Source of the DNA: Candidatus Delongbacteria bacterium
GTDB lineage: Bacteria > CAIWAD01
NCBI GenBank assembly: GCA_963663545.1
Contig: OY760505.1
Location: 2,773,664 to 2,837,663 of the forward strand
Direction of reading: 5' to 3'
DNA length: 64,000 nucleotides
The position numbers and the translations under genes are program-made. This document shows positions 1 through 64,000 of the stretch, piece after piece. The notes under the pieces were generated by a model. It did no database searches. It was given only the letters and a program-made list of their open reading frames with translations, and was not told the origin of the DNA. Numbering within the stretch: position 1 is the stretch's first letter; every line of letters starts with the position of its first letter.

Positions 1-1
1 G

Positions 2-307
2 ACCATTTCCACCAAACCCTTTGAGTACATGGCCTGCGGCATGCCTGTGATCATGTCCGACTTCCCTTATTGGCGGCAGACCTTTACGGAGTACGCCGAA
101 TTCGTCAACCCGGCTGATCCGGTTGCGCTGGCGGAGAAGATTGATTTTCTGCTGCAGCATCCGAAATATGCCCGCGATCTGGTCGACAGAGCCAAGAGTT
201 GGATGGAAGCGCACTACTCCTGGGAACGGGAGGAACAGAAGCTGCTGGCCCTCTACCGGCAACTTGAACGCGGCAAGTTGAGCGCGGAAGGTGAGAGTCT
301 TGCCTGA
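2..307 (+). CDS. glycosyltransferase family 1 (GT4-type), C-terminal fragment; 5' end lies outside the window
   Basis: Open frame from window edge to stop at 305-307; translation ...KPFEYMACGMPVIMSDFPYW... resembles the conserved C-terminal region of GT1/GT4 enzymes. Confidence 0.55.
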   Translation, partial: TISTKPFEYMACGMPVIMSDFPYWRQTFTEYAEFVNPADPVALAEKIDFLLQHPKYARDLVDRAKSWMEAHYSWEREEQKLLALYRQLERGKLSAEGESLA

Positions 308-1304
308 GCCCGTCATCTCCCTCATCATCCCGACCTATAACGAGGAAGCCTTCATCGGCCCCTGTCTGGACAGTCTGCTGCGGTGTGATACACCGTATCC
401 GCTGGAAATTCTTGTGTTGGATGGTCGCAGCAATGACCGCACACCAGCTGTTTTGGCTGAATATCAGGCTCGCTATCCGCAGCTTCGCGTGTTGGAAAAC
501 GAAGATCGTGTGCAGGTCAAGGGGCTAAACCAGGGCATTCGCGAGAGTCGCGGACGCATCGTGTTACGCTGTGACGCGCACTGCGAGTACCCGCGAGACT
601 ATATCCGCAGATTGGTGGAAGTGCTTGAACGCGGCGAAGCGGACAACGTCGGTGGCACCATTGAAACGTTGCCTTCTGGCGATTCGCTGCAGGCGCGTGC
701 CATTGCCTGGGCGATGAATCATCCCTTCGGAGTCGGATTGTCCTTTCGCACGCGCAAGCTGGGTAGCGATTCTGTTGAAGTCGACACGGTTCCGTTTGGA
801 GCTTGGTATCGCACGACGCTACAGAAGCTCGAGGGCTTCGACGAGAGTTTTGTGCGCGCTCAGGATCTGGAATTGAACCTGCGCATAAGGCAGAGCGGAG
901 GTCGCGTTCTTCTGCTGCCAACACTGGTGACCCGGTATTTTGCACGCAGTAGTTTGCAGAAGTTGCTGCGCCTCGCTTGGCAGATGGGCTACGCGAAAAT
1001 GCAGGTGGCCTACAAACATGGGCGCGTCGGCAGTCTGCGGCAGCTCTTTCCCCCGCTGCTGGCGTTGGGGCTTCTGCCTGCGCTATTCTGGTGGCCGTTG
1101 GCTTCTGCCTATCAACTCTATCTGGCGATGGCGATGCTGATTGCTTTGTGGGGGGGAATCCGGCTGCACAGCCTGTTGGCCGTGCCGATTGTGTTTGCCG
1201 CCTTCCTGAGCATGCACTTCAGTTACGGTGCTGGCTATCTGCTGGGCTTCGTCGAGTACTTTCTGCTACGGAAGGGGCGCAGTCAGTGGCAGGCGACACG
1301 CTGA
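291..1304 (+). CDS. glycosyltransferase family 2 with C-terminal transmembrane region
   Basis: 337-aa ORF (GTG start); N-terminus IIPTYNEE...LDGRSNDRT...RCDAH typical of GT2 fold; hydrophobic C-terminal helices; overlaps upstream gene by 17 nt. Confidence 0.75.
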   Translation: MRVLPEPVISLIIPTYNEEAFIGPCLDSLLRCDTPYPLEILVLDGRSNDRTPAVLAEYQARYPQLRVLENEDRVQVKGLNQGIRESRGRIVLRCDAHCEYPRDYIRRLVEVLERGEADNVGGTIETLPSGDSLQARAIAWAMNHPFGVGLSFRTRKLGSDSVEVDTVPFGAWYRTTLQKLEGFDESFVRAQDLELNLRIRQSGGRVLLLPTLVTRYFARSSLQKLLRLAWQMGYAKMQVAYKHGRVGSLRQLFPPLLALGLLPALFWWPLASAYQLYLAMAMLIALWGGIRLHSLLAVPIVFAAFLSMHFSYGAGYLLGFVEYFLLRKGRSQWQATR

Positions 1305-1350
1305 TGATGTGATACGGTGTGATTCAACCTGTTGTGTCACAAGGCGACCG

Positions 1351-2346
1351 TCAGGAGCGATTGGCACCCCACAGCCGCTGTTTCAGATCCACCAACGAGC
1401 GCGCCGTGTTACGCATGGTTTCCAGTAGCGGATAGCGTGATACACGCCCCCACGGTACAGCGATTTCCCGGCCACCATATTTGCGCTTGTACTCGCCTGC
1501 ACCACCCATGTCATAGCTGCTGATACCGCGCTCTTTCCAGTAGCGGATGGCAAACCACTGCAAGGCTTCGTTTGGCCGCAGGTTCTGGTCAGCGCGCCAG
1601 CTGGCACCGCCCCAGAAATACATCATCTGGTTGATGCCGGGAAAGATTCCCGTGGCGATACAATTCCCTTCGGGATCGCGTGCCCGCACCAGCAGCAGGT
1701 TTCCCGTGGGCAGCAGGTGTTTGATGAGTGCCGCAACGCGCTCGCGCTTGTAGGTCGGGACCAGCTTCTGCTTGGCAAACACATCCTGGAGCTGGTTGTA
1801 GAAGTCATCCACGAAGGCTTCATCACTGGCGGCCTCGAGGATCACGCCCGACTTCTCGGCCTTGCGAATGCAGCGCCGGCACGCTGAGTTCATCTCGTTG
1901 AAGATTTCATCTTCGCTGCGTTGCAGGTCAATTTCGAATCCGCTGACGAAGCGATAGCGGAACCCCAGGGCGTCGTAGTCGGCGGGTGTCAGGGCGCGAT
2001 CCATCACTTCCAGATGCGCACAGCCTAGTTTGCCGAAAGCGAACTCGGGTAGCGCAGCCAGAGCTTTGCGGCGCTCAACACCTGGTCTCAGATTGAAACC
2101 CATGTAGGCCGTTGTCCAGCCGGGAAGAGGTGAGCCCAGCATGCGCAGCAGGCCGAATTTGCGCAGCATCAATCCGCGAAACTGCCCTACGACCTTCCCG
2201 TGCTCGCGCAGCTCGGCGAAGATCGGTTCGGCGCCCTGTGTCTCTTGCACGAAGTTCAACCAGGCCTGTGTCTGGCAGATGTAGTGGTCGTCGAATTCCT
2301 CGACCGGACAAAGGTTTTCAGCGGCTACGCGGTGCATCTCAATCAT
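1351..2346 (-). CDS. FemAB-like / GNAT-superfamily acyltransferase
   Basis: 331-aa ORF; length and sequence pattern resemble FemAB/BioF2-like acetyltransferases common in exopolysaccharide loci; assignment by eye only. Confidence 0.45.
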   Translation of the reverse strand: MIEMHRVAAENLCPVEEFDDHYICQTQAWLNFVQETQGAEPIFAELREHGKVVGQFRGLMLRKFGLLRMLGSPLPGWTTAYMGFNLRPGVERRKALAALPEFAFGKLGCAHLEVMDRALTPADYDALGFRYRFVSGFEIDLQRSEDEIFNEMNSACRRCIRKAEKSGVILEAASDEAFVDDFYNQLQDVFAKQKLVPTYKRERVAALIKHLLPTGNLLLVRARDPEGNCIATGIFPGINQMMYFWGGASWRADQNLRPNEALQWFAIRYWKERGISSYDMGGAGEYKRKYGGREIAVPWGRVSRYPLLETMRNTARSLVDLKQRLWGANRS

Positions 2347-2450
2347 AAACGCGCTCGGTCTGTTCTCTCAATTCTCTGGTATCTGTGATACAGCCATCAG
2401 TGTGCATCGCAGGATCGATTGTGGTGATGAAAGGTGATACGTGGCCATGT

Positions 2451-3401
2451 TTACGATGTACCACGTGTGGCGAACTTGTTTGCAAACCACTGCCATTCCA
2501 GGCGTGTGCGCTCAATCGTTGTGATACAATGTTCACCGCGCTGCTCGCGGATATAGTCAAGCAGTGTAGAGACAGGCACAAACCAGCCGTCGCGGGCGGC
2601 AAGATCCTCCATCAGCCCTTGGAAACGTGCGTCAAGTCTACCTTGTGATACAAAGCCAGGTGCACCCAGATGAGCATACATGATGCACGCGCCGCCTTCA
2701 TTCTCGAGGCGTAGCTGATTCTCTTCGGAGACTGTGCGACAGAAGGAGTCCAGTGTACCGCCTTCTGCCGAGGCGAACCACTGCTTGACCAAAGGACGCA
2801 GAGTATCGTGATACGGCATCTGAGGGCAACACTTGAGCGTGTTGATGTCCTTGAAGACGAAATTGCGCACGTACTCAATGTGCTGCTCGCACAAGTCACC
2901 CCAGAAGTACTCGCTACCCCGCACCTCTCCCTGGAAACGATGGAGTTTGCGAAAGCGCGTTGCCAGCGTGTAGGCCAGACGGAAGAGCCCGCTTACGCGC
3001 TTGTGTCCCCAGTACAGGCAGTCGCGGCAATCGGAATGGTTCACTTGAATGCGGGGGAAGCTGCCGTAGATGCTGAAGTAGGTATCAAGCCCGGCCACGA
3101 TCTGGGCACGCGGCGAATTGTTGTAGGTCACATTGTGTAGCGCAATTTCGAAGCCGTCCTGCTGCAGACCGCGCGTCCATTCGCGATACTCAGCTTCCTC
3201 GCAAGTCGAGCCCCCCACCTTGGCTTCGCCGACACCCTTGATGGGCCAGACGGATTTGCTTGTCCGCATGCCCAGCGATTTGAGGAAGTCGTAGATCACG
3301 GGCCCATTCTCCATGGTGGTGTGGTCCGTGTCATCGAAAATGGTGAAGGCGAACTTCTTCCCTTCGGGCCAGCGTAGACGAGGTTTGCTTTGCGTTGACA
3401 T
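2451..3401 (-). CDS. conserved hypothetical protein, possibly polysaccharide deacetylase-like
   Basis: 316-aa ORF with N-terminal FAFTIFDDTDH block reminiscent of deacetylase/hydrolase motifs; no confident family assignment. Confidence 0.35.
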   Translation of the reverse strand: MSTQSKPRLRWPEGKKFAFTIFDDTDHTTMENGPVIYDFLKSLGMRTSKSVWPIKGVGEAKVGGSTCEEAEYREWTRGLQQDGFEIALHNVTYNNSPRAQIVAGLDTYFSIYGSFPRIQVNHSDCRDCLYWGHKRVSGLFRLAYTLATRFRKLHRFQGEVRGSEYFWGDLCEQHIEYVRNFVFKDINTLKCCPQMPYHDTLRPLVKQWFASAEGGTLDSFCRTVSEENQLRLENEGGACIMYAHLGAPGFVSQGRLDARFQGLMEDLAARDGWFVPVSTLLDYIREQRGEHCITTIERTRLEWQWFANKFATRGTS

Positions 3402-3514: not shown

Positions 3515-3522
3515 TTCCTTAG

Positions 3523-3595
3523 CTCCTGAGGAGGGACTTGAACCCCCAACCTAGTGGTTAACAGCCACCCGCTCTACCGATTGAGCTACTCAGGA
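3523..3595 (-). tRNA. tRNA-Asn (anticodon GTT)
   Basis: Cloverleaf folded by hand on minus strand: 7-bp acceptor stem tcctgag/ctcagga, D-arm gctc/gagc, anticodon stem ggtgg/ccact with loop ctGTTaa, T-arm ggggg-ttcaagt-ccctc; CCA not encoded. Confidence 0.85.
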
Positions 3596-4411: not shown

Positions 4412-4570
4412 AACAGCCGATGCGGCTGATCGGAGCTGGTGCCTCTCTCCGCTGAGTGAGAGTAGCCGGACCTTTGTGTCACGTGATTGCCTTCCGCCCC
4501 TTGATGACCGCTCCGCATGAGTACTTCCTGACATCTGCGCCTGAGTTTCCAGTAAGTGAAAGGCCCCTGC

Positions 4571-5854
4571 ATGGAGATCGGTATCCTTGTAACACACGGC
4601 ACAGATACATTGGCCTGGACTCTGCCCTACATCCGTTACGCGTTAAAGAACTTCCCTTGGAATGTTTGTCTCACGGGAAGTCAGGCACCGATGGAAAGCG
4701 CCTTCGCGCGCAGTGACGGTTACCAGAACATTCACGGAGCCGTGCGCTTCATGTCGGTGCTTGATCCACCCAACGTCTTCTGCGTGTTCAACAACGGCCT
4801 GAACGCTTACAGCGATTCGCTTGCCAAGCTCGAACGCTGGCGCCTGGATGCTTTTACCGGCGATCCCATTGCCACTATGGAGTGGGACGAGATTCAGCAT
4901 CGCTCTGGTGACGCGCGACTGCGCGAGCCCATTCGCTTTGACGAGCTGCACCTGATTACCACTGGTGGAACGATTGAGAGCGAGGCTGGCGAAGATGGCC
5001 TTACGCCCGGCAGTGGCAAGGTGGAGGAGTTTCTCAAACTGACCTTGGCCGATTCCTTTGAGAACGTCTTTGTGCATCGAATCGCCCGTGTTGATTCGGC
5101 GGAACTGGATGTATCACACATGGAGCGTTTTGCGCGCGCCATTTTCGATTGTGGCACCGGGCGCTGTCCGAGCGAATCGATTCGTCCTGATGCCGACGCG
5201 GATGCCGTGAATGTGACCTATGGCCAGCGCGGTGAGCTGCGGCAATCGTGGGAAGATGGACAGCAGCCGGCAAGTCTGGATCTGTCCTTTGCTCGTCACG
5301 TACCCCTTGTTTACTGTGACCCGTTTCGTAGCGCGTCAAGTTACCGGCGTGAAGTATACGCGGCCAAGGCTGTTGTTTTGGCTGGTTATGGTGGCGGCAA
5401 TGCGAACGCCAACCCCGATCTGCCTGGAAGCGTGATACCGGCACTGATGGATGCGGTGGAGAAGGACTGCCTTTTTGTGCTTAGCAGCCAAGTGCCCATC
5501 GGACCCGTGGACTTTGTCTACGAAACCGCCACCAAGTTGATTCGGCGTGGCGCGCTTTCAGGAGTGGATTTGAGTCTTCCTGAGTGTCAAGTGCGGCTGA
5601 TGTATCTGCTTGGACATGAAGAACAGATTGAAGGCATGGCTGAGCGTCTGCAGATTGAGCCGCTTCTGCTGAAGAAGGCGCTATTCATGTCGGGGATGAA
5701 GTTCCGTAACCGGGCTTCCAAGATGAGTTTTCGCATGCTCAGCGGTGATACATTTCCGCTAATCAGGGAAGACTTGCTGGTGGGACCGGCATTCGAGCAG
5801 TGCGAGGAAATCCTGAAGCGTGCTTTTTACGGTGATACAATCAGCTTGATCTGA
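4571..5854 (+). CDS. L-asparaginase family protein with atypical (apparently permuted) motif order
   Basis: ILVTHGTDT...LTGSQ...SDG.N block at the N-terminus, TTGGTIES block around residue 136, C-domain VVLAGYGGGNAN; start taken at ATG 4571 (track start GTG 4556). Confidence 0.6.
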   Translation: MEIGILVTHGTDTLAWTLPYIRYALKNFPWNVCLTGSQAPMESAFARSDGYQNIHGAVRFMSVLDPPNVFCVFNNGLNAYSDSLAKLERWRLDAFTGDPIATMEWDEIQHRSGDARLREPIRFDELHLITTGGTIESEAGEDGLTPGSGKVEEFLKLTLADSFENVFVHRIARVDSAELDVSHMERFARAIFDCGTGRCPSESIRPDADADAVNVTYGQRGELRQSWEDGQQPASLDLSFARHVPLVYCDPFRSASSYRREVYAAKAVVLAGYGGGNANANPDLPGSVIPALMDAVEKDCLFVLSSQVPIGPVDFVYETATKLIRRGALSGVDLSLPECQVRLMYLLGHEEQIEGMAERLQIEPLLLKKALFMSGMKFRNRASKMSFRMLSGDTFPLIREDLLVGPAFEQCEEILKRAFYGDTISLI

Positions 5855-5907: not shown

Positions 5908-7089
5908 ATGCAGGACTTCGTTTTTCACAATCCCACACGAATCATCTTTGGCGATGGCGTAGTGGACCAGGTGGGCGAGCAGTGTGCGCGATTCGGCAAG
6001 AAGGCGCTGATTCTGGCGGGACAGGGAAGCGCACGCAGGTGCGGACTACTGGATCGAGTTGAGCAGCGCTTGAGTGATGCTGGCGTGGACTATGTGACAC
6101 TCGAGGGAGTGCAACCCAATCCACGCTTGTCACACGCACGCGAGGCGGTTGCCCTGGCCAAGCGGGAAGGTGTTGATCTGCTGTTGGCCGTTGGCGGCGG
6201 CAGCGTAATCGATGAGGCCAAGGCGGTCTGCAGTGGCGCGCTGGTGGATCACGACGTCTGGGAATTCTACAAAGGAAGACTACCCGAGCGCTCGCTTCCA
6301 TTGCTGACGGTGCTTACGCTGGCAGCCACGGGTAGCGAGATGAACGGCGGCAGCATTCTTAGTAATGCAGAGACGAAAGAGAAGCTGCCTTTCCGGAATC
6401 CACTCTCCTTTCCCCGTGTTTCCATTCTGGAGCCGGCTCTGACGCTCAGTGTATCACACTGGCAGACTTCCTGCGGTATCAGTGACGCCTTCGCGCATCT
6501 GATGGAAGTGTATTGTAACTCACCCGATCCGCGCCCTCTCCTTCAATTGGAACTGATCGAGGGTCTGGTTCGCACGATTCGCGATTGCGCCGAAAGGCTG
6601 ATGCAGAATCTGCGAGACCTGGATGCGCGACGCGAATTCATGTGGGCGGCTACTTTGGCGCTCAACGGGTTGACGGCGGCTGGTTCAGGTGCGACGCCCT
6701 GGCCTTTGCACATGATGGAACACGCCCTTTCGGGGATCACCGATGTGAGTCACGGCGCCGGTTTGTCGGCGCTGTATCCGGGCTGGATGCGATGGCGCCT
6801 GCAGAACAATGGCGAAAGGCTGGAACAGCGTCTGGCACGTCTAGGACGTAATTGCTTCTGTATCACAGAATCGAATGACGCGCTTGCCGCCCTGCGGTGT
6901 ATCACGGAAATTGAAGATTGGTATCGCATTTTGGGCGTGCCAGCCAACTTGGATGAGGCAGGGATTCCCCGTGAACAGGATACCGAGGTGATACAAGCTG
7001 CCGCTCGGGACGCCGTAGACTGGGGATTGAAAGAGTATTCCGCGCAGGTGTTGACGGCGATCTTTGCTGCGGCGCGTGCAAGCGAGTGA
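5908..7089 (+). CDS. iron-containing alcohol dehydrogenase
   Basis: 393-aa ORF; GDGVVDQVG...LLLAVGGGSVIDEAKAV and overall length typical of Fe-ADH family. Confidence 0.85.
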   Translation: MQDFVFHNPTRIIFGDGVVDQVGEQCARFGKKALILAGQGSARRCGLLDRVEQRLSDAGVDYVTLEGVQPNPRLSHAREAVALAKREGVDLLLAVGGGSVIDEAKAVCSGALVDHDVWEFYKGRLPERSLPLLTVLTLAATGSEMNGGSILSNAETKEKLPFRNPLSFPRVSILEPALTLSVSHWQTSCGISDAFAHLMEVYCNSPDPRPLLQLELIEGLVRTIRDCAERLMQNLRDLDARREFMWAATLALNGLTAAGSGATPWPLHMMEHALSGITDVSHGAGLSALYPGWMRWRLQNNGERLEQRLARLGRNCFCITESNDALAALRCITEIEDWYRILGVPANLDEAGIPREQDTEVIQAAARDAVDWGLKEYSAQVLTAIFAAARASE

Positions 7090-7105: not shown

Positions 7106-8170
7106 ATGAACAACATACAACGAGACACGCAACCCCCCGTACCGGCAGGTGGCGAACCGGAACGCAAACCCGTAATCCTCTCGGGTATTCAGCCTTCGGG
7201 GCAGTTGATGATTGGACACTATTTCGGTGCCCTGCGCAACTGGGTGGAGATGCAGCAGAATCACGACTGTTACTACATGCTCGTGGACCTGCATGCCATC
7301 ACCGTCTATCAGAAACCGGCGGATCTGCGCAAGCGCTGCCTGGAGTTCATTGCGCTCTACATAGCGGCGGGTTTGGATCCTGAGCAGAACACGGTTTTCA
7401 TCCAGAGCCACGTGCCGCAGCACGCCGAACTAGCCTGGGTACTGAATTGTATCACGCCGCTTGGACAGCTGCAGCGGATGACACAGTTCAAGGACAAGGC
7501 ACGCAAGAACGCCAAGAACCTGAACGCTGGTTTGCTCAATTACCCCGTTCTGATGGCGGCGGATATTCTGCTCTACAACGCCGACAAGGTGCCGGTAGGC
7601 GAAGACCAGAAGCAGCATTTGGAGCTGGCGCGTGACGTGGCGCAGCGCTTCAACAGTATCTACAGCCCTACATTTACAGTGCCGGAACCCTTCATTCCCA
7701 GCCGCAAAATGGGTGCTCGCATCATGAGTCTGCAGGACCCGACCAGTAAGATGTCCAAGTCAGATCCGGATCCCAACGCCTCCATCAGCCTGCTAGACCC
7801 ACCCGATGTGATACAAGCCAAATTCCGTCGCGCGGTGACCGATTCCGAAGCTTCCGTCGGCTATGATATGGAACAGCGTCCGGGCATCAGCAATTTGATG
7901 ACGATTTTCAAGTTGGTCACGGGTATGGAATTCGAAGAGCAGGAAGCGCGCTTTGCTGGTCAGGGCTATGGGCCTTTCAAAAAAGAGCTGGCCGACGCGG
8001 TGGTTGCCTATTTGGCACCCATGCAAGAGCGCTATAAGCAGGTGGTCGGTGACAAGACTTACCTGGCCGATGTGCTGAACCGCGGAGCAGAGCAGGCGCG
8101 CCGACGGGCGCAGCGCGTGCTATCCAAGGTATACCGCAAGGTTGGCTTCATAGAGGCGGGCAGGCCCTAG
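7106..8170 (+). CDS. trpS: tryptophan--tRNA ligase
   Basis: Class I aaRS motifs: SGIQPSGQLMIGHY (HIGH-like) and KMSKSDP; ATG 7106 preceded by ggag; track start 7064 would overlap the ADH gene. Confidence 0.9.
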   Translation: MNNIQRDTQPPVPAGGEPERKPVILSGIQPSGQLMIGHYFGALRNWVEMQQNHDCYYMLVDLHAITVYQKPADLRKRCLEFIALYIAAGLDPEQNTVFIQSHVPQHAELAWVLNCITPLGQLQRMTQFKDKARKNAKNLNAGLLNYPVLMAADILLYNADKVPVGEDQKQHLELARDVAQRFNSIYSPTFTVPEPFIPSRKMGARIMSLQDPTSKMSKSDPDPNASISLLDPPDVIQAKFRRAVTDSEASVGYDMEQRPGISNLMTIFKLVTGMEFEEQEARFAGQGYGPFKKELADAVVAYLAPMQERYKQVVGDKTYLADVLNRGAEQARRRAQRVLSKVYRKVGFIEAGRP

Positions 8171-8196
8171 CCGTGAACCGCATTCTGTGCTGACGA

Positions 8197-8784
8197 CTAT
8201 TGCCCTTGCGTTTGAACCAGGAGCAGGATGGCCTTTTGCGCCTGCTCCTCGGCGTGGCGGCGTTTTTCCTCATCCAAGTGCTCTTCGGCACAGTGGTGAA
8301 TGATCTGTCGCACACCGCCAAAGACGAAGTAGCGCAGAATGGCCGGATCCAGTTCGCTTTCTCCCAAGGCCAAACGCAACATGTCTCGCAGAATGTCCAT
8401 GAAGCGTGAGTACAACTCGCCAAGGTCCTCTTCCCAGCGATGCATCCAGAAGCTTTGCTCGTTCACAAAAACGCGCGCCAGGTTGGAATCGCTGTTGAAG
8501 GTCTCAAAGACCGCAGGAATCATCTTGTGCATACGCGAGGAGGCGTCCAGGCTTTCATCTTCTGCAATTTCAGTCAGATGCCCCAGGATGCTGCCCCACA
8601 TTTCACGAAAGACGGTGCGAAGGATGTCGTCTTTGTGCTCGAAGTAATTGTAAACACTACCCGTTGCCACACCTGCCACCTGAGCAATGCGTGCAACTTT
8701 TGCTGCTGAGTAGCCTTCTTCGGCAAACACCTGAACCGCTGCACGCAAGATGGCCGTGCGCTTGTCACCCGACTTCCGTCGCAT
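8197..8784 (-). CDS. TetR/AcrR family transcriptional regulator
   Basis: 195-aa ORF; N-terminal HTH KRTAILRAAVQVFAEEGYSAAKVARIAQVAGVATGSVYNYFEHKDDIL. Confidence 0.85.
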   Translation of the reverse strand: MRRKSGDKRTAILRAAVQVFAEEGYSAAKVARIAQVAGVATGSVYNYFEHKDDILRTVFREMWGSILGHLTEIAEDESLDASSRMHKMIPAVFETFNSDSNLARVFVNEQSFWMHRWEEDLGELYSRFMDILRDMLRLALGESELDPAILRYFVFGGVRQIIHHCAEEHLDEEKRRHAEEQAQKAILLLVQTQGQ

Positions 8785-9035
8785 TGCACTCTCCTATGAA
8801 TCTGGATTCAATCTGAAAAAGCTTTGAATACCTCGCAAGCATGTGCGAACAGGCTGGACTCCAGAATCATGAATCCCTCTGCCTCGAAAGTAGTGAATAG
8901 AATTCAGCAAATCACAAGTCGACTCCTCTAGATTCATCTGTGATCCAAATCAAGTTCCGTCTCCATCCGGTTTCCTAACTTAACCGGCTAGAATGCTGCG
9001 TATCTCGGCATCTACAAAGCAGGACGGGAAAAGAC
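8785..9035. promoter_or_regulatory. divergent intergenic region with inverted repeats (candidate TetR operators)
   Basis: GAATC-tg-GATTC at ~8796-8807 adjacent to TetR start, ccggtt-N9-aaccgg further downstream, and repeated gaatc/gattc elements. Confidence 0.3.
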
Positions 9036-10643
9036 GTGACATACCTCATCGTTGGCCTGGTCGCCTTGTTCCTCACCATGACTCTAACACCGTTGTTGCA
9101 GCGTCTCGCTCTGCACATCGGCGCGGTGGACGAACCCGACGGCAAGCGCAAAGTGCACAGTATCCCGATTCCGCGCATCGGTGGCGTGCTGATTCTCTTT
9201 TCCTTCATGCTTTCCTGCCTGCTCTTTCTGCCCGCAACCAATGAAATGCGTGCGATCCTCGCCGGCAGCCTGATGATCGCTGGTCTGGGCTTGACCGACG
9301 ATCTGATAGGCGTAAGGGCCTGGCTAAAATTCCTTATTCAGTGGGTCGTGGCGGGCATTTATCTGGCTGTTTCCCAACCCGAGTTGACCCTCTTCGGCGC
9401 GGAGCTCCCGATCTGGATAAACCAGCCTGTGGCGGCCTTTTTCCTGGTTGCGCTGATGAATGCCTTCAATCTGCAGGACGGATTGGATGGCCTGGCCGCA
9501 GGGTTGTCGATTATCGCCGCCATGTCCATCGGTGTCATTCTGACTTTTTCCGGCAATCCGCAAATCACGCTGACTCTGGTGGCGCTCTCGGGAGCCATTC
9601 TTGGCTTTCTGCGCGTCAACACCTGGCCAGCACGCATTTTCATGGGCGACACCGGCTCCTATCTGCTCGGCTTTGTGCTGGGTGCGTGCTTTCTGGAGGG
9701 CGTGGAACACGACAGTCTGCCCTTATGGACCGGCTTGCTCTTCTTCGCCATTCCGCTGTTTGACACGTTCCAGGTCATGGTCACGCGGTTGGTGAAGGGA
9801 CAGGGGATTTTCACTGCGGACAAGCGCCACCTGCACCACCGCCTGCTGGCCCGGGGGTACAAGCACGAACAGGTCGTTTTCATCGAATACATCCTTGCTT
9901 CCTTGCTGGCGCTGATTCCGCTGCTAACGGTTTCGCCTTTGCGTCTGCGTTGGTTCGGTTTGATCCTGATCGTGCTGGTGCTGATGGTTTTCCTGTTTCA
10001 GTACAACCTGTCTGAAGACAAGGAGGGCATCATTCGGCCACGTGTCGCCCACCGCGATGGCTATCGCAAACGAATCAAGCTGGCCATACAAGTGCTGCTT
10101 CTGTTGGCGGTTCTGGGCGTATACCTGATTCAGCTGTTTGCCGTGCGCGGGGTCACGCTCAAGTACGGACTCCTGCCAGCTTCTTTGGCCGTGTTGTACG
10201 CCTTGTGGTCGACGTGGCGACTGCACATGGCGCAACGCTCGCGTATTAGCTTTTCCATCAGTCTGGTTGTGGCCGCGCAGTTGTTCATTTTCCATCAGTT
10301 CAGCAACCAGCTTTCGCCCGTGTTGCAGAACCTGCACGAGTATCTGTGGATCGCCACGGGCGGACTCAGTGCGCTGGTGTACGCAATCCGCTGGCGCCAT
10401 CACACTCTGCTCAGCAACCCGGTGGAGTACTTCCTGATCTTCTGCACCATTCTGGTCTTCTACCTGCCGGTGGAAGTCAAGGGAGGCTTTCGCACCGACT
10501 ATCTGGCGCTTGAAATGCTGTCGTTCTACGCGTTCTACCGCGTTTCCGTGGGATTATTCGACTTGGAGAAGAACTACCGACTGCCCTTGCTTGCAGCCAC
10601 CATGCTTGCCTTGCTTGTTAGCGTGGGGATGCTGCGTGTTTAG
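9036..10643 (+). CDS. WecA/MraY-family polyprenyl-phosphate HexNAc-1-phosphate transferase with extended C-terminal membrane domain
   Basis: 535-aa polytopic membrane protein; N-terminal region ...GKRKVHSIPIPRIGGVLILFSF... typical of this family; GTG start. Confidence 0.7.
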   Translation: MTYLIVGLVALFLTMTLTPLLQRLALHIGAVDEPDGKRKVHSIPIPRIGGVLILFSFMLSCLLFLPATNEMRAILAGSLMIAGLGLTDDLIGVRAWLKFLIQWVVAGIYLAVSQPELTLFGAELPIWINQPVAAFFLVALMNAFNLQDGLDGLAAGLSIIAAMSIGVILTFSGNPQITLTLVALSGAILGFLRVNTWPARIFMGDTGSYLLGFVLGACFLEGVEHDSLPLWTGLLFFAIPLFDTFQVMVTRLVKGQGIFTADKRHLHHRLLARGYKHEQVVFIEYILASLLALIPLLTVSPLRLRWFGLILIVLVLMVFLFQYNLSEDKEGIIRPRVAHRDGYRKRIKLAIQVLLLLAVLGVYLIQLFAVRGVTLKYGLLPASLAVLYALWSTWRLHMAQRSRISFSISLVVAAQLFIFHQFSNQLSPVLQNLHEYLWIATGGLSALVYAIRWRHHTLLSNPVEYFLIFCTILVFYLPVEVKGGFRTDYLALEMLSFYAFYRVSVGLFDLEKNYRLPLLAATMLALLVSVGMLRV

Positions 10644-43382: not shown

Positions 43383-43386
43383 TACT

Positions 43387-44187: not shown

Positions 44188-44189
44188 GC

Positions 44190-46534: not shown

Positions 46535-46576
46535 AGGCCACTGGACCCGGGCTGCAGCTTCCCTTTGGAGGGCAAA

Positions 46577-48690: not shown

Positions 48691-48710
48691 TGCGCAGAGA
48701 GGATGATTTG

Positions 48711-49664: not shown

Positions 49665-49684
49665 TCCTCTGCAAGGAGGGGCGC

Positions 49685-50683: not shown

Positions 50684-50712
50684 TACTGACGTTGTGACAA
50701 AACTGCTAAGCT

Positions 50713-50757
50713 GGGTCTGACACCGCTCTGACCCCCACCTGACCCGTGTCAGACACC
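50713..50757. promoter_or_regulatory. inverted-repeat element GTCTGACAC ... GTGTCAGAC (candidate operator) upstream of gene 50934
   Basis: gggtctgacacc (50713-50724) and cgtgtcagacacc (50745-50757) are inverted copies with ~22-bp spacer; same 9-mers recur at 63256-63299. Confidence 0.4.
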
Positions 50758-50933
50758 CCGCGATTATCTCGCATACAGCACTCTACCCGATTCGCCGCAA
50801 AAGTCGATACGAAATTGCTTCGACGGCCCTGTTAAAATTCGAACAGAAGTTATAAGTTAGGCGCACAAAAGAACGCTATCCGGGCAAAACAAAAAGATGA
50901 TAGCGTTAAATAATAAGTCTTAACGGAGCGCCT

Positions 50934-53743: not shown

Positions 53744-54133
53744 TGCTTCTCCTGTGTTGGTTTCGATACATCAATATAGGAGAGCATTCGCCATCGCGAC
53801 CAGATCAGGGTTTAGGGCTGGACCACCGCCCTCCATTGGGCCAATCATGTGTCACAGCAAAGCGTCGGAGTGTGGGACAGGCACCGATCGCCCTGCGATC
53901 GCTATACGGCATCCGGGAGTTCGTTGGATGACAATTCCAGCTTTGCAGCGGACTCTTTTCCCCCATACTCCGAGGCAGGGAAGGGAGTCTTTTCCTATAC
54001 TCATCGGTTATGCCTGAACCTTAACCTGGCTAGGTCGTGCTCCCGTCAGGCGGATACCGCTGCACGACCGATGAGTGAGAGTCTGCCCCGGCGTGGAGAT
54101 GAGTGCGCCAATAGGCCTTACAAGGAGGATTCC

Positions 54134-57703
<3,570 letters not shown>

Positions 57704-57725
57704 TTCCAACTGCCTTGTATCACAA

Positions 57726-57755
57726 GCCCCCGCCGTGTGCGGGGGCTTTCTTTTT
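57726..57755 (+). terminator. rho-independent terminator after PFOR gene
   Basis: Hairpin gcccccgc-cgtgt-gcgggggc followed by tttcttttt. Confidence 0.8.
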
Positions 57756-57807
57756 GAAACCCCACACGTGGTTCGCACTCTTGCCGTGATACAAACACGG
57801 AGGCATC

Positions 57808-58692
57808 ATGCAGGAACAGAGCAAGTGGAGAGTAGAGCTGGCCCGTGAGTTGGCAAAGGTCTACGCCGATAGGCCGGGTTTGCGGATGATGGTGCTGGGC
57901 GGATCTGCATCGCGTAACCGTGCCGATGAATTCTCCGACCTGGACATCGTCGTCTATTGGGATGAGCTAGATGAGGATTTCATTCGCAGCCTGCCCTTGA
58001 AAGCACGCGGCGCGGAGAAGGCGCTGGTCTTTCCCCATGGTCCCGGCGTGCTGATTGAGGAGTATTACTTCGATGGCCTCAAGGTAGATCTGGGACATCT
58101 GCGCATGGAAGCCTGGGAGCAGATGCTGCAGACGGTGCTTGTGGATCACAAACCGGACATGGATGTGATCGGATCAATCGATGGAATGTCTCACGCGATA
58201 CCCTTGCTGGAGGAGGAGGAAGTCCTGCGTCAGCAGGAGCGACTGCTGGAGTATCCGGAGGAGCTGGCGCTGAATGTGATACGCAGACATCGGCGCTTCT
58301 TTGTGGGCGGTTGCCTGGAAAACCAGGGCTGGGCGCGTAACGAATGGCTCTTTTACTGGGACGCTGTCACGGCGACACTGAAGAATCTGCTGGGCATGTT
58401 GAGCGGACTCAATCGCGTGTATTACAGCCCCGGCGAGCCGCGCTGGTATCGGCCCTTTCTGGAGGAGCTGAAAACGGCCCCGCCCGACATGGCCACTCGT
58501 GTGGATCACATTTTGACCACTCCCGGACCCGAAGCCTTGACTGAACTGCGGCTCCTGCTGCTGGATACCTTGGAGATTGTGCGTGCGCAGTATCCGGCAG
58601 AAGTCTCTGATCGCATGCTGCAGGCTATTGGCGGAAACAGCGTGAATGCGGTGTCACGTCGGCCGGATGTGCTTGCGAATGGCTGTGTGTAA
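57808..58692 (+). CDS. nucleotidyltransferase-domain protein (hypothetical)
   Basis: 294 aa; NTase signature MMVLGGSASRNRADEFSDLDIVVYW; ATG after acggagg. Confidence 0.5.
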   Translation: MQEQSKWRVELARELAKVYADRPGLRMMVLGGSASRNRADEFSDLDIVVYWDELDEDFIRSLPLKARGAEKALVFPHGPGVLIEEYYFDGLKVDLGHLRMEAWEQMLQTVLVDHKPDMDVIGSIDGMSHAIPLLEEEEVLRQQERLLEYPEELALNVIRRHRRFFVGGCLENQGWARNEWLFYWDAVTATLKNLLGMLSGLNRVYYSPGEPRWYRPFLEELKTAPPDMATRVDHILTTPGPEALTELRLLLLDTLEIVRAQYPAEVSDRMLQAIGGNSVNAVSRRPDVLANGCV

Positions 58693-59067: not shown

Positions 59068-59711
59068 GCAAGGGTACGCTAACTGCCGCCAAGCTGGCAG
59101 AGGGCGCGCGTGTACTGAGTGCGAGTGATCCTTTGCTGGGAGAATGGATCACGCGCATCGGGAGCATCAAGTTGAACAAGCCTTCTGGTGCCTATTCCGT
59201 GCTGGCACAATCGATCATTGCACAACAGCTTTCCGACAAGGCCGCCGGGACAATTGCCGGTCGTGTGATACAGTTGCTGGGCGATTTGCAAGATCCAGGA
59301 AACATGTGTCGTCAGTGTGATACGGAGGAGGGGCGCGAGGCGCTGCGCGCCTGTGGTGTGTCACGTCCAAAGATCGGCTATCTGGCAGGTTTGGCAGACG
59401 CCTTCGGCAGTGGAGTGCTGAGCGACGCTGTTCTAGCTCGCATGGCCGATGCGGAAGTAATCGAGCACCTGGTGCAGCTGAAAGGGCTAGGTCGCTGGAG
59501 TGCGGAGATGTTCCTCATCTTCGGCCTGCGTCGTCCCGATGTCTTCAGTCCCGGCGATCTGGCACTGCGCCGCGGCATAATGCGGTTGTGTGATACACAG
59601 GAGATGACTCCGACCCAGTGTGACGAGTACGCAAAGCGCTGGACGCCATGGAGGACGGTGGCGAGCCTGTATCTGTGGCGGATTGCGCACGTGGCGCCCA
59701 ACCTTAGTTGA
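59064..59711 (+). CDS. HhH-GPD superfamily DNA glycosylase (DNA-3-methyladenine glycosylase II-like)
   Basis: 215 aa; helix-hairpin-helix block LVQLKGLGRWSAEMFLIFGLRRPDVFSPGDLALRRG; GTGA overlap with upstream stop. Confidence 0.7.
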   Translation: MSKGTLTAAKLAEGARVLSASDPLLGEWITRIGSIKLNKPSGAYSVLAQSIIAQQLSDKAAGTIAGRVIQLLGDLQDPGNMCRQCDTEEGREALRACGVSRPKIGYLAGLADAFGSGVLSDAVLARMADAEVIEHLVQLKGLGRWSAEMFLIFGLRRPDVFSPGDLALRRGIMRLCDTQEMTPTQCDEYAKRWTPWRTVASLYLWRIAHVAPNLS

Positions 59712-59795: not shown

Positions 59796-62700
59796 TCATT
59801 TCAGCAGCACCATCCTTCTGGTCTGACGCTGCCCGGCACTCTCCAGTGAGTAGAGATAGATGCCGCTGGCGAGCTTGCTGCCGTCAAAGGGCAGGCTGTG
59901 GCTGCCGCTTGCGCGCTCCTCGTCCAGCAATACTTCGACAAGTTGCCCCGTCAGATTGTAGACTTCCAGGCGCACGCGCTCTGGCTGCAGCAGCTGGAAT
60001 TCGATTTGTGTCACAGGATTGAATGGATTGGGGAAGTTCTGCGCCAGCTTGAAGACCTGTGGCTGCCCAGTCTCCGGATCCAGACTGGTGGTGGAAAAAT
60101 CGATGTTGCAAGTATAGACGTCTTTGTGTTCTTCCTTGCCCGAGGCGCGCATGTCGATCCAACTCACGTAAGCACCGTCTGCCTGATTGTAGCTGACATA
60201 GGGAGCGCGCTGACTGAAATCGATTTCGGCAATCGCATCCGCTTGCCAGGGGTGAACAGGGTTCTCTTGCGGCGTGCCACCTGTCGGTGATACATGGTAC
60301 TCCCTTGCCCACAAATCGCGATACCCATACTGGCTGTCAAGCTCTTCCATTTCTGCCACGATTAGCAGACCATTCCAGTTGCCGCGAGGGATCACAGTCG
60401 CGGAAACTCCCTGTTGATTGCCAGCGCCAACAAAGACATCGCCGTTTTGGTCTTCCCATTCCAGCGTGCCATCCGCCAGTAAGTGGCGCATGCCTATATC
60501 ATAGTCCCCATTGGGAGAAATACTGGTGAACACCACGAAAGCGCCATCGTGACGATCCGCGAGGAGCGCAGCTGGTCGATAGCTGTTCCCTTCTGTTACT
60601 ACGCTGGTTGTCCAGAGCGTTTCTCCATCAGCATCAACGGCCATGGCAATCAGATCTGCCTCACTGCCAGTTCCAGGGTAGTCACTCCAGAGGACAATGA
60701 AGCCACCGGCGGAATGTGATACAACCTGGGCATCAGTTTGTCTATCTTCAGCGTTTATCAGAATCCGACCCCCATCTTCCAGCAGACTCGCACCATTCCG
60801 GTCCACATGCTGCATCCGCAGGGAGTACGCAGTCCAGATTCCGCCTCGCCAAATCACCCAGGCGCCGCCCGCTCCATCGGCGATCAATGCCTCCAATCTC
60901 TCCACTTCTTCGTCAGTCGATGTGATACGAATCCCGTTTTGGTCCCAGCAACGATTCCCGTTGAGGTCGAAACACTGCATGTTGACATCGGGATAGAAGA
61001 GGCTGAACTCCGTATCCACGCCTGACCAGGCGACTATCAGCCGATCGCCACTGCGTATCACTTTGGCGTTTGTCTGGTAGGCCAGACCGGACTCCTCATC
61101 AAAATCCTGTGTCACGGGTTGGGCTGCATCCCAGAGCCGGTTGCCTTGCCCATCAATGTGGGTCAGGTAGCTTCGCTGAGCGCAGTAGTTGCCCACTTCC
61201 AGCAGCACATAGGCACCGCCGTTATCATCGGCGAGGAGGTCGTACGCGTACTGACCTCCATCCAGTGTAGGCTCCAGTGGCACACCATTCGGCTCCAGCA
61301 GGCATTCGCCCTCGGCCTGAGTCAAGTGCTGCATGAACACGTGCGGGCCATTCCCGAGGGCGGGGTCTGTCCAGAAGACAAGACAGCCCTCGTCTATCGC
61401 CAAGTTCTTCACCTCGTTGGCGTTTCCCCCGATTCCCTTGACAGTAGTATCACCTGTGTTGCCAAAGCTCAACTCCCCTGAAGCGTTGAGGTGCTGAGTG
61501 CGTATCTCTGCAGCATAGCCAGGGATTGCTTCCAGCCAGGAGACGAATACACCCCCTTCTTGATCCAGCCGCAGCGTGGGGTAAACCGACTGCGCCTCCG
61601 CGGGGGCAAGTGATACAACTGGTATGCCATCCGTTGGCCAAAGTGTTTGACCGTTCTCATCCAGGCTTTGGGCGTAGATGGAAACTGCATTCGATGCGCG
61701 AAAGTCCTGCCAGGTCAGAAAGGCAATACCAGCGTCGTTCACAACCGCTCTTGCCTCAACTTGAAAGTCCTCGGCCTGTGTCACCGGCACGCCGCCACTT
61801 TCCCAGACGCTCGCGTTGTCAACACTCAGTTTCTGGCAGTATAGATCACTCTCGACGTTGTTCGGATCATTGCGGGCATCTTCCCAGGTCAGCAGTGCGC
61901 TGCCAGCACCCGCTGTCGTCAGTTGCGGATTCTGCTCCGTGATGTTCTGGCCGTTGGAGACCGGCGTACCGTTCTCGGCAAAGGAGGCGTTCAGTTCTGA
62001 ATCGAAATGCTGCACAAGAATATCGCCGGCGTTATCATCTGCGTACTCACGGAAGGCGACGAAGCATCCGTCAATGCCATCCCAACACGCGCGCACTGAG
62101 GATTGGAAACCCACCCGGTTTGTAACACACTGGCCATCGCTTCCACTCGCCAGACTTCCATCCGCATACACATGCTCGATGTAGATGTTCTGGTCCGCCT
62201 GAACCCGACGGTCGGTCCAGGCCAGGAACACCCCGCCATCGCCATCCTGATCCATGCTGATGCTTTGCTGATTCCCCTGCAGGGTGCAGATGGCAAGGCC
62301 GTTATCGCCAAACAGGGGATCTACATGGCCATCGGCGTCCACGTGGCTGATGAAGACATCAAGACTGGAGTTGCGGTAATCAGACCAGGCGATCCATGCG
62401 CCACCGTTCTGGTCAGGACAAACCTGATGATCAATGCCCACATAATACTCCGGATCGAAGGAGTAGCCCACGCACTCCGTGCACAACACAACGGGATGCT
62501 GCCAGGCCAGAGCGCCGCCGCCCTCTCCGTCGATGATGTAGTTGATGTAAAGGTCGCCAGCAGGATCCTGCCCGTAGTCGACATAGCTGATGAAGGCACC
62601 GCCGTTTCCATCGCTGCAGAGGGCGGGATCTTCCTGGCGTTTGTCCGCGCCGCTCACCAGCAGACCATCGATGGGATTCGAACCACTGGCATCACTCCAC

Positions 62701-62972
62701 AGATGCGGCGATGCGGGATTGGCCAGCGAGAGCTTTTGTGCGTAGACATCGCGCATGCCGAAGCGTGTGTCCGACCAGGCGACAATCACTTCGCCCTGAT
62801 TGCCCATTGTCACACTGCGGTACCACTCAATGTGATACCCTTGCCGGACGGGAGTTCCGGCCGGATCGTCCCAGAGTAGGGGGACTTCTGCCGAAGCCGT
62901 TTGCTGAAAGGCGCTAAGTAGACATGCTGCAGTCAGGACTAGCGCAGGTGCCAACCTTCGTCCATGTTTCAT
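59796..62972 (-). CDS. large secreted repeat protein with T9SS-type C-terminal sorting domain
   Basis: Start trimmed to ATG 62972 giving signal peptide MKHGRRLAPALVLTAACLLSAFQQTASA; internal repeats; C-terminus ...FPNPFNPVTQIEFQL...LEVYNLTGQLV...GIYLYSL...MVLLK. Confidence 0.7.
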   Translation of the reverse strand: MKHGRRLAPALVLTAACLLSAFQQTASAEVPLLWDDPAGTPVRQGYHIEWYRSVTMGNQGEVIVAWSDTRFGMRDVYAQKLSLANPASPHLWSDASGSNPIDGLLVSGADKRQEDPALCSDGNGGAFISYVDYGQDPAGDLYINYIIDGEGGGALAWQHPVVLCTECVGYSFDPEYYVGIDHQVCPDQNGGAWIAWSDYRNSSLDVFISHVDADGHVDPLFGDNGLAICTLQGNQQSISMDQDGDGGVFLAWTDRRVQADQNIYIEHVYADGSLASGSDGQCVTNRVGFQSSVRACWDGIDGCFVAFREYADDNAGDILVQHFDSELNASFAENGTPVSNGQNITEQNPQLTTAGAGSALLTWEDARNDPNNVESDLYCQKLSVDNASVWESGGVPVTQAEDFQVEARAVVNDAGIAFLTWQDFRASNAVSIYAQSLDENGQTLWPTDGIPVVSLAPAEAQSVYPTLRLDQEGGVFVSWLEAIPGYAAEIRTQHLNASGELSFGNTGDTTVKGIGGNANEVKNLAIDEGCLVFWTDPALGNGPHVFMQHLTQAEGECLLEPNGVPLEPTLDGGQYAYDLLADDNGGAYVLLEVGNYCAQRSYLTHIDGQGNRLWDAAQPVTQDFDEESGLAYQTNAKVIRSGDRLIVAWSGVDTEFSLFYPDVNMQCFDLNGNRCWDQNGIRITSTDEEVERLEALIADGAGGAWVIWRGGIWTAYSLRMQHVDRNGASLLEDGGRILINAEDRQTDAQVVSHSAGGFIVLWSDYPGTGSEADLIAMAVDADGETLWTTSVVTEGNSYRPAALLADRHDGAFVVFTSISPNGDYDIGMRHLLADGTLEWEDQNGDVFVGAGNQQGVSATVIPRGNWNGLLIVAEMEELDSQYGYRDLWAREYHVSPTGGTPQENPVHPWQADAIAEIDFSQRAPYVSYNQADGAYVSWIDMRASGKEEHKDVYTCNIDFSTTSLDPETGQPQVFKLAQNFPNPFNPVTQIEFQLLQPERVRLEVYNLTGQLVEVLLDEERASGSHSLPFDGSKLASGIYLYSLESAGQRQTRRMVLLK

Positions 62973-63279
62973 CTGTTTCCCCGCTTTCGCTGATTCGCCC
63001 GTGCACCACGCACCGGCTGAATGGGTGTACGCCATCGACCCCAGGTTGTATCACGAAAACAGGTTCAGACTCATGCTTGGCTTTCGCGACTTCGGGGAAG
63101 CTGCGTGTGTCACAGTCCCGAAGGAGTAACTCGTCGTGGCTTCATTGCCAGCACGAATGAAGGTGGCTTTGCCGAAGTGGATGCACAATGAAAAAGGAGC
63201 CTCGCCTTTCGAGTGTCAATTTGCATGGACAGAATCGGCATTGAGGTGCCAGACGGGGGTCAGACACTTGCCTGGCACC

Positions 63280-63299
63280 GGTCTGACACGTGTCAGACC
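63280..63299. promoter_or_regulatory. perfect 20-bp palindrome ggtctgacacgtgtcagacc (candidate operator)
   Basis: Self-complementary 20-mer in the ~340-bp intergenic region upstream of the minus-strand T9SS gene; adjacent GTCAGACAC copy at 63259 and flanking inverted repeat GGTGCCAG (63245-63252) / CTGGCACC (63272-63279). Confidence 0.45.
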
Positions 63300-63308
63300 C
63301 TGATTCGA

Positions 63309-64000
63309 TCAATGATACCTTGCGCGAAACACACCGCGTGATCCAAGCGCATTCATCGGCTGGAAGACTTCTTGTGGACCATCCAGTGCCAGGACCTCAA
63401 TCAGCGGGATCCATTCGTCGCCGTCCTGTTGATAGATCGTGTAGATGCCTCCCGGGGCTCCCCCAGAAAGAAGAAATGTGATCCCAAGCGGGCCGCTTTC
63501 AATGTGTAGCTCGGGTATCGCCAGCTCATCCACAGCAGGAAAGGAATATAGGCCGTAGCCTTCGGCGCCGCCACTGGCCGTCGCCAACACTCTGCCGCGC
63601 TCTATCTGCATGTCCAATGGTCCATTGCAATCCATCATGCCACTTAACTGAAACTGCCCATCCTCTGCCAATGCGACGTGTGTCACGATCCCCATGTAGT
63701 TTTCGGATCCGGTTGTATATACCCCGCTCGAAGAGAGGTACAGATCCGCAACACCGCCGAACAGTTCCATGCTACCAAGCTGAGTGAAATCGGGCAAGGA
63801 GAAGGAGTACAGCGTTGTACTGGTGGAAACCAGCATGAGATCTTCGCGGAAGACGACGCCGGTAACCGATCCATTGGACCACTCAAACACTGACTCAGGA
63901 AGCTCCGTGTCCGCCATGTTCCAGACCTGGAGGGAGTAGTTATAGCCGGAGCTTCGTCGAAGTGCAGCGAGGTAATCGCCGCCGATGGCAAGATCACTGA
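63309..64000 (-). CDS. hypothetical protein, 3' portion; 5' end beyond window edge
   Basis: Minus-strand frame stays open from 63917 to position 64000; Gly/Ser/Tyr-rich beta-strand-like sequence; no family assigned. Confidence 0.4.
   Translation of the reverse strand, partial: SDLAIGGDYLAALRRSSGYNYSLQVWNMADTELPESVFEWSNGSVTGVVFREDLMLVSTSTTLYSFSLPDFTQLGSMELFGGVADLYLSSSGVYTTGSENYMGIVTHVALAEDGQFQLSGMMDCNGPLDMQIERGRVLATASGGAEGYGLYSFPAVDELAIPELHIESGPLGITFLLSGGAPGGIYTIYQQDGDEWIPLIEVLALDGPQEVFQPMNALGSRGVFRARYH

Follow-up and report, generated by a model that had tools for sequence, protein, structure and literature searches.

The window analysed here, a 64-kb stretch of contig OY760505.1, is an ordinary chromosomal segment, about 92% coding and with a GC content of 57% throughout, whose genes include a polysaccharide biosynthesis cluster, TrpRS, GatDE, PpiD, CdsA, pantothenate kinase and PFOR. 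Several of its proteins bear type IX secretion sorting domains, on the basis of which the organism is placed in the Fibrobacteres-Chlorobi-Bacteroidetes (FCB) group. Dispersed through the window is an octamer, GTGATACA, which is the subject of this study. It is not palindromic: its reverse complement, TGTATCAC, is a distinct word, and when a T is added at position -1 the symmetry is limited to the outer TGT/ACA arms. On both strands together the octamer occurs 74 times, as against 0.99 +/- 1.02 in dinucleotide-preserving shuffles (maximum 4), and the heptamer GTGATAC is found at 109 sites where 3.8 would be expected, giving densities of 1.16 and 1.70 per kb respectively. The base that follows the heptamer is A at 74 sites, G at 23, C at 8 and T at 4, and GTGATACR accounts for 97 of the 109. 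A preliminary description of this DNA had estimated about 100 heptamers and 75 octamers, most of the remaining heptamers carrying a single variant base, against chance expectations of about five and one, and the exact counts and the shuffles agree with these figures.

The claim in the same description of a more than tenfold enrichment also holds under stricter background models. An order-3 Markov model predicts 3.6 octamers in the window, and in unrelated bacterial loci, about 2.1 Mb in total, 36 were counted, or 0.017 per kb. When synonymous codons were shuffled within each gene, 68 octamers were observed in coding sequence against 6.8 +/- 2.3; this shuffle preserves each protein and the codon usage of each gene, and is conservative because the motif's own codons remain in the pool. 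The excess of GTGATACA and GTGATAC is thus 20- to 75-fold over the dinucleotide shuffle, the order-3 model and the unrelated loci, and about 10-fold over the codon-aware shuffle. A Markov expectation of maximal order is uninformative, as its sub-words are dominated by the motif itself. Two sets of loci were used as negative controls only: a scan based on PFOR, a transfer-prone gene, which gave 80 loci from many phyla at no more than 74% protein identity, and a metagenome scan with TrpRS that was dominated by the universal KMSKS pattern and in which relatives reached at most 60% identity. One explanation for such numbers would be an error of assembly or polishing, a side effect of codon usage or a repeated peptide motif. 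Most copies do lie within genes, which is all that can be said in favour of this, whereas the codon-aware shuffle falls short tenfold, the copies are spread over five reading frames and both strands, and some are intergenic. The word is also present in independent ENA, NCBI, JGI and Logan assemblies produced by different assemblers, and a contig from a different assembly spans 40937-62065 of the window at 99.98% identity. Confinement to this one contig, which had been named as an outcome that would undo the observation, is not what was found, as independent assemblies of related organisms carry the word at similar density. Artefactual and protein-level readings are excluded, and the hyper-abundance of the octamer is real.

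The two orientations are represented by 64 and 45 sites (59:41), close to the 60:40 first estimated and yet not different from 1:1 (p=0.08), and their order along the window is random, with no clustering (runs test z=-1.2). It follows that the word is not polar in the way that Chi or the FtsK-orienting polar and architecture-imparting sequences (KOPS/AIMS) are. These signals, which the preliminary description had listed as an alternative, are likewise short, non-palindromic and over-represented chromosome-wide, and a Chi-like hotspot for RecBCD/AddAB or a KOPS/AIMS-type guide for FtsK would be consistent with a length of 8 bp, which is typical of Chi and KOPS. It would also fit the slight excess on the + strand, on which G predominates over C for most of the window, as shown by a mostly positive GC skew (replichores were assigned from GC skew alone). 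However, Chi and KOPS are strongly co-oriented with replication, at roughly 75-90%, and far less dense, by a factor of about 5 to 10, whereas the word has no significant skew and its 20- to 70-fold enrichment is far above that of Chi. A polar signal is contradicted by the absence of orientation bias and we consider it very unlikely.

Little of the sequence around the octamer is constrained. Position -1 avoids A and position +9 avoids T, information content in the flanks is at most 0.23 bit per position, the remaining flank positions carry no more than 0.05 bit each, and nothing is conserved beyond -1 to +9. As the flanks are not conserved, GTGATACA does not represent the central part of some longer repeat or of a mobile element. 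A dispersed repeat of the repetitive extragenic palindrome (REP) or miniature inverted-repeat transposable element (MITE) type was rejected, there being no extended unit beyond these positions and 92% of sites being coding. Within the word, one-mismatch variants stay close to background when the change is at position 1, 2, 3 or 7 (0 to 6 copies) and are enriched 5- to 15-fold when it is at position 4, 5, 6 or 8, the enriched variants in the window being GTGATACG (23 copies), GTGACACA (21), GTGTTACA (14) and GTGATCCA (14). All words of the GTGNNACA family taken together have a density of 2.7 per kb, GC-matched controls having 0.26 per kb, and an AT centre is strongly preferred. From these counts the mismatch spectrum looks like graded recognition, in which G1, T2, G3 and C7 would be read strictly and positions 4-6 and 8 with tolerance.

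Reading frames, proteins and motif-poor tracts

The sites are distributed between coding and intergenic DNA in proportion to the coding fraction, with 9 of the 109 heptamers (8%) intergenic. Intergenic copies of the octamer lie at 2385-2392 (+), 22606-22613 (-), 57786-57793 (+) and 63047-63054 (-), and of GTGATACG at 1309-1316 (+) and 2434-2441 (+). Two more, at 37884-37891 (-) and 57716-57723 (-), abut terminators, in keeping with the earlier report of sites in genes, between genes and beside terminators. In both cases TGTATCAC is flush with the base of a strong intrinsic-terminator hairpin (37857-37891 and 57716-57748 with the word included), the first copy lying immediately 3' of its stem (37857-37883) and the second immediately 5' of its own (57724-57748). 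None of the strong terminator stems in the window contains the word.

Within genes, sense and antisense copies stand at 46:54 and all five stop-free reading frames are used, the sole empty frame being the one that would read TGA. Where a protein contains a peptide that the word can encode, the word is usually what encodes it: C-I-T is encoded in this way 7 times out of 7, [LMV]-Y-H 11 out of 11 and [CRSG]-D-T 27 out of 38, and 13 of the 48 rare ATA codons of the window sit in GTG-ATA-C. Such compatible peptides are scarce in genes without the word, and alignments with relatives reveal amino-acid changes that generate it. Taken together, the synonymous saturation, the scarcity of the peptides elsewhere and the word-creating replacements indicate that the word shapes the proteins and not the reverse; the pressure acts at the level of DNA and not of protein. 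The inflation of these peptides parallels that of uptake-sequence tripeptides, which are doubled in Haemophilus and Neisseria (PMC2817400). Site counts also rise towards the 3' ends of genes (11, 18, 17, 22 and 31 in successive quintiles; p=0.02), which may be likened to the bias of uptake sequences to gene termini in Pasteurellaceae (PMC2346458).

Spacing along the window is over-dispersed, with a coefficient of variation of 1.53. There are two gaps of about 5.7-5.8 kb, equalled in none of 5000 random placements. The first (7816-13495) has no heptamer in 5.7 kb and contains genes for a TetR protein, a WecA-like GT4 protein and two membrane proteins of unknown function; the second (46037-51821) has none in 5.8 kb and holds an unknown gene, a DHH phosphoesterase, a further unknown gene, a TrkA-type channel and part of another gene of unknown function. 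Genes in the gaps have few compatible peptides, none of them encoded by the word, and motif density in general is unrelated to hydropathy. GC content at third codon positions (GC3) is 0.64-0.74 in the first tract, and its counterpart in a syntenic relative, L084 (11053-16497, 72% identity), is likewise motif-poor. Exclusion of the word from this tract is therefore persistent and does not stem from recent acquisition, and recent transfer as the cause of the gap is correspondingly weakened.

Relatives, conserved sites and turnover

The comparison covers one genomic neighbourhood per organism, that is, the 64 kb of the window and about 150 kb of relatives' DNA at one locus. A clade of TrpRS homologues at 69-78% identity includes one that is labelled Candidatus Delongbacteria. 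The top TrpRS match, P0001, was rejected as a relative, being a Firmicute of 29% GC with a longer TrpRS-domain protein of 548 aa. L084 (TrpRS 78%, GC 56.5%) has 20 octamers and 37 heptamers in 21 kb, an octamer density of 0.95 per kb, and L172 (TrpRS 73%, GC 57%) has 18 octamers in 21 kb (0.86 per kb), position 8 being almost always A. In L085 (TrpRS 75%, GC 63%) there are six copies of GTGATACA (0.30 per kb) and five of GTGACACA in 20 kb, and these are its two most exceptional octamers. L090 (TrpRS 70%, GC 64%) has only two copies of GTGATACA and prefers other GTGNNACA or GTGATCCA words, with GTGTGACA found 7 times against 0.3 expected and GTGATCCA 11 times against 1.8; this may tentatively be called a dialect of the word, in a GATC-rich genome. 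L087 and L089 (TrpRS 73%, GC 59-60%) have no copy at all. The word is thus a lineage trait, strong, weak, altered or absent among close relatives.

Words containing GATC are themselves strongly enriched in some of these relatives (L172, L090 and L085). GATC occurs 378 times against 158 expected in L172, where TGATCA is found 42 times against 7.3, and 392 times against 141 in L090, and the window is mildly enriched (744 against 481). These differences may reflect Dam-type methylation biology that varies within the clade.

Two related viral contigs of 55-56% GC from IMG/VR sample 3300045988 carry about ten copies of (G)TGATACA or TGTATCA(C) within an AT-rich region of about 270 bp (L195, 1100-1380; L235, 9430-9700) and no copy elsewhere on the contig. 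The clusters lie upstream of an operon of two long open reading frames (ORFs) that by eye are primase-helicase-like and DNA polymerase-like, and from this arrangement they look like origin or operator iterons using the same word. A scan of viral contigs for inverted motif pairs gave chance pairs and such local iteron clusters, and no motif-dense phage.

Over 17.5 kb the window can be aligned with L084 at about 74-75% DNA identity. This alignment includes 25 sites of the window, and at 14 of them L084 has the same sequence, compared with 14.7% of random heptamers (p=2e-6). Conserved octamers are those at 1437-1444 (+), 2521-2528 (+), 5110-5117 (-), 5745-5752 (+), 6898-6905 (-), 6988-6995 (+), 16532-16539 (-) and 16749-16756 (-), together with one in TrpRS at 7448-7455 (-) that is shared with L172 as well. 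Variant sites conserved in L084 are GTGATACG at 2808-2815 (+) and GTGATACC at 5432-5439 (+) and 14435-14442 (-), and the heptamer is kept at the octamer 14180-14187 (+) and at GTGATACG 17204-17211 (+). The 45-nt flanks of the shared sites are 64-79% identical, which is the alignment average, and conservation is therefore specific to the word. Within a single species, the contigs L172-L175 differ by 119 single-nucleotide polymorphisms, none of which falls at a motif position, where only 0.8 were expected.

Most of the other alignable sites are lineage-specific. Examples are the octamer at 6859-6866 (-), which is specific to the window, and a second copy in TrpRS at 7808-7815 (+), a window-specific gain at which relatives have GTGATCCG. 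At the octamer 6450-6457 (-) L084 has GTGACACA. Codon alignments of three genes with up to six relatives were used to polarize such differences where outgroups could be aligned, and there the lineage-specific sites look like gains, from sequences 1 to 4 substitutions away and in some cases by non-synonymous change. The gains fall at different positions in each lineage. Conservation combined with repeated independent gain points to a directional force that creates and preserves the word in each lineage. One candidate for such a force is a neutral mutational drive, in which a sequence-specific bias of repair or gene conversion, of the very-short-patch type, would generate a word that is itself functionless. 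The 5- to 15-fold enrichment of variants one step removed (GTGACACA, GTGATACG, GTGTTACA and GTGATCCA) would be expected from such a process, as would independent gains in each lineage and densities that differ among relatives as if an enzyme had been gained or lost. However, known repair biases act on one position and enrich a word only a few fold, whereas here several directed changes are needed per site, up to four of the eight positions since the split from L084. Moreover, existing sites are conserved four times above background while their flanks diverge normally, and some genes have stayed free of the motif in two species while their neighbours filled. We consider a functionless word improbable.

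Candidate functions and known genomic words

A density of about one per kb, the lack of polarity, a pressure at the DNA level, the distortion of the proteome, dialect-like variation and conservation together with gain are the signature of a word that is recognized in double-stranded DNA and multiplied by over-transmission or by selection. We tentatively propose that GTGATACA is a self-recognition signal for DNA uptake, spread by biased uptake and recombination. In this model it would act as a genome-wide tag of self, read on double-stranded DNA. The cell would be naturally transformable, with a DNA receptor at its surface that binds fragments carrying the word more readily, and such fragments would replace their homologues via recombination, so that mutations creating or improving the word would be over-transmitted and mutations destroying it under-transmitted. 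In time the word would become so common, at about one copy per kb and in either orientation, as to saturate the genome, override codon preference and alter amino acids. The reader of the word would presumably be the uptake machinery. Uptake drive is favoured because it explains why density matters more than position and how several directed substitutions can accumulate for each gain.

The closest parallels are with the two known families of uptake sequences. The uptake signal sequences (USS) of Pasteurellaceae also have a density of about one per kb and are found on either strand, mostly within genes and in several frames; they inflate their own tripeptides (PMC2817400), show graded importance of individual positions (PMC3458573) and an in-gene bias to termini (PMC2346458), and are lineage-specific with variant types. 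In density, orientation, frames and tripeptides the word therefore behaves as a USS does. It does not contain the 9-bp cores (AAGTGCGGT / ACAAGCGGT), however, and is unrelated to them in sequence; it has 8 bp without the helically phased AT-rich tracts that flank the USS, and is not enriched in intergenic DNA or terminators. USS hosts are proteobacteria, whereas the host of the word is an uncultured FCB-group bacterium. The DNA uptake sequences (DUS) of Neisseriaceae (AT-GCCGTCTGAA and its dialects) are also hyper-abundant and without polarity. Relatives with altered or weaker versions of the word may be compared to DUS dialects (PMC3630211), and DUS sites in core genes are conserved with ongoing turnover (PMC2397512), as are the sites described here. 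In contrast, there is no sequence similarity (no DUS-like word, whether with the core GCCGTCTGAA or a dialect with a CTG core, was found among the top k-mers), the word is shorter, and it forms no inverted pairs that act as terminators: about half of DUS copies are in terminators as inverted-pair stems, as against 9 of 109 intergenic sites here and stems free of the word. DUS also have a cognate receptor, the minor pilin ComP, and a measurable uptake bias; no pilin gene was found in the 64 kb of the window. The word thus belongs to neither uptake-sequence family, being unrelated in sequence, shorter and without the terminator or inverted-pair habit.

Several of these observations weigh against an uptake signal. 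The lineage is uncultured and is not known to be naturally transformable, and no competence, type IV pilus, recombination-hotspot or DNA-methylase gene was found within the 64-kb window. Known uptake sequences are of 9-12 bp and about half of them are in terminators, often as inverted pairs (10.1101/2025.10.24.684340), compared with a word of 8 bp that is 8% intergenic and absent from terminator stems. HIP1, the highly iterated palindrome of cyanobacteria, has the same statistics and is no established uptake signal (PMC5861425). Motif density falls with rising GC3 (rho -0.50, p=3e-4), which could mean that there is selection against the word in some genes, and a 5.7-kb poor tract shared with L084 is not predicted by a model in which density depends on residence time alone, given the long co-descent of the two organisms. 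The idea of a DUS- or USS-like sequence, already raised in the preliminary description, remains the best single explanation. It is supported by density, lack of polarity, use of frames, proteome distortion, lineage restriction and turnover, and the word differs from known uptake sequences in length, in terminators and inverted pairs, and in intergenic enrichment.

Another possibility is that the octamer is the site of a resident DNA methyltransferase or of an abundant DNA-binding protein and is selected, as HIP1 may be, for a function at the level of the chromosome and not as a filter for uptake. Nucleoid organization, a self-marker in defence or an aid to recombination or repair would be functions of this kind. 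HIP1 (GCGATCGC) is likewise an octamer, found about once per gene and over-represented 15- to 300-fold, a range that includes the 20- to 75-fold excess seen here, and its sites are conserved above neutral expectation within and between ORFs (PMC5861425), an argument once used for selection on HIP1 and one that applies equally to the 14 of 25 sites shared with L084. Variant HIP words occur in related lineages (PMC4390886), and the function of HIP1 is still debated. A chromosomal function would also sit well with the proportional distribution over coding and non-coding DNA, with over-dispersed spacing and with motif-poor tracts shared by two species, and the iteron-like clusters in the phage contigs L195 and L235 suggest that proteins reading the word may exist. 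In these statistics a HIP1-like word, also named in the preliminary description, fits about equally well. HIP1 differs in being a perfect palindrome tied to two orphan methylases, and HIP variants linked to Type II-like methylases are all palindromic (the methylase sites being GATC/CGATCG), whereas the present word is non-palindromic and no methyltransferase is encoded in the window. HIP1 also has a periodicity of 10-90 kb, and the window spans 64 kb. Gains at many positions in each lineage, with density counting for more than position, are easier to account for by drive than by site-specific function. In addition, according to a recent report HIP1 promotes natural transformation (10.1101/2024.09.10.611283), and this alternative may therefore merge with uptake. 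Taken by itself a HIP1-like role is somewhat doubtful, yet nearly as likely as the uptake signal that we favour.

We found no paper in literature searches that describes this word as a genomic signal, and the top full-text matches to GTGATACA or TGTATCAC were to biomedical papers on unrelated subjects, so that the matches looked incidental, probably primers. Precedents are of two kinds only, DUS/USS (PMC3630211, PMC2397512, PMC2817400, 10.1101/2025.10.24.684340) and HIP1 (PMC5861425, PMC4390886), and the word is a new instance of this rare class of hyper-abundant genomic words. In a recent survey, uptake sequences are described as belonging to Neisseriaceae and Pasteurellaceae (10.1101/2025.10.24.684340). 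It is conceivable, although we would put this more cautiously than the proposal of an uptake signal as such, that GTGATACA is the tag of a third, independently evolved uptake-sequence system, the first outside Proteobacteria, its host being an uncultured member of the FCB group near Candidatus Delongbacteria. If so, uptake of self DNA (species-restricted sex) would be wider than two proteobacterial families, and specific uptake systems could be recognized in uncultured organisms by sequence analysis alone. Few hyper-abundant short words are known to which codon choice and protein sequence give way, and each of them has started research of its own: the study of DUS and USS led to the receptor-mediated uptake of self DNA, and HIP1 is still open after thirty years. 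As density is high in some close relatives, low in others and zero in yet others, a comparison of their genomes could lead to the gene that reads the word, which should occur in motif-rich genomes and be absent from motif-free ones, and could also show whether drive or selection is the maintaining force. In practice, the word can also serve as a marker for binning contigs of the lineage and for spotting recently acquired DNA.

Remaining copies and neighbouring features

The remaining octamers are distributed along the window as follows. On the + strand they lie at 385-392, 2645-2652, 5832-5839, 15672-15679, 18421-18428, 19171-19178, 20145-20152, 20537-20544, 27778-27785, 29363-29370, 29843-29850, 30591-30598, 30904-30911, 30966-30973, 31395-31402, 31552-31559, 36038-36045, 36218-36225, 37276-37283, 38074-38081, 41929-41936, 42976-42983, 43354-43361, 43706-43713, 45321-45328, 45381-45388, 46029-46036, 52138-52145, 52432-52439, 52513-52520, 55800-55807, 59265-59272, 59590-59597, 60287-60294, 60716-60723 and 61610-61617. 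Those on the - strand are at 13639-13646, 13965-13972, 14030-14037, 17279-17286, 19775-19782, 19889-19896, 20120-20127, 20291-20298, 20489-20496, 23301-23308, 28297-28304, 34039-34046, 40106-40113, 40479-40486, 40993-41000, 44141-44148, 51822-51829, 52109-52116 and 53330-53337. The variant GTGATACG is found in addition at 17649-17656, 19566-19573, 20517-20524, 23101-23108, 30258-30265, 35630-35637, 39091-39098, 41109-41116, 58276-58283, 59317-59324 and 60922-60929 on the + strand and at 24379-24386, 24407-24414, 32096-32103, 42684-42691, 43523-43530, 52652-52659, 53348-53355 and 61054-61061 on the - strand. Further copies of GTGATACC are at 36807-36814 and 62832-62839 (+) and at 13496-13503, 18950-18957, 35380-35387 and 57410-57417 (-), and GTGATACT occurs at 35698-35705 and 43379-43386 (+) and at 54918-54925 and 61446-61453 (-).

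Among the neighbouring genes, GatE (34357-36453, +) and GatD (36450-37838, +) pass the NCBIfam equivalog cut-offs for the archaeal-type proteins (485 bits against 456 and 508 against 310 respectively), in a genome that is in other respects that of an FCB-group bacterium. Upstream (4556-5854, +) there is a second, degenerate GatD/asparaginase-like paralogue, which is kept in all relatives examined. Two tRNA genes are present, tRNA-Asn(GTT) at 3522-3595 (-) and tRNA-Gln(CTG) at 33307-33378 (+), the first of them 98.6% identical to a 73-nt stretch of L085; the long ORFs that overlap both probably have starts called too early. The PFOR gene (53849-57703) has the highest GC3 of the window (0.79) and a single octamer in 3.6 kb. 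Its closest homologues, at 73-74% identity, are in metagenome-assembled genomes with varied phylum labels, a pattern that suggests horizontal acquisition or strong codon selection.

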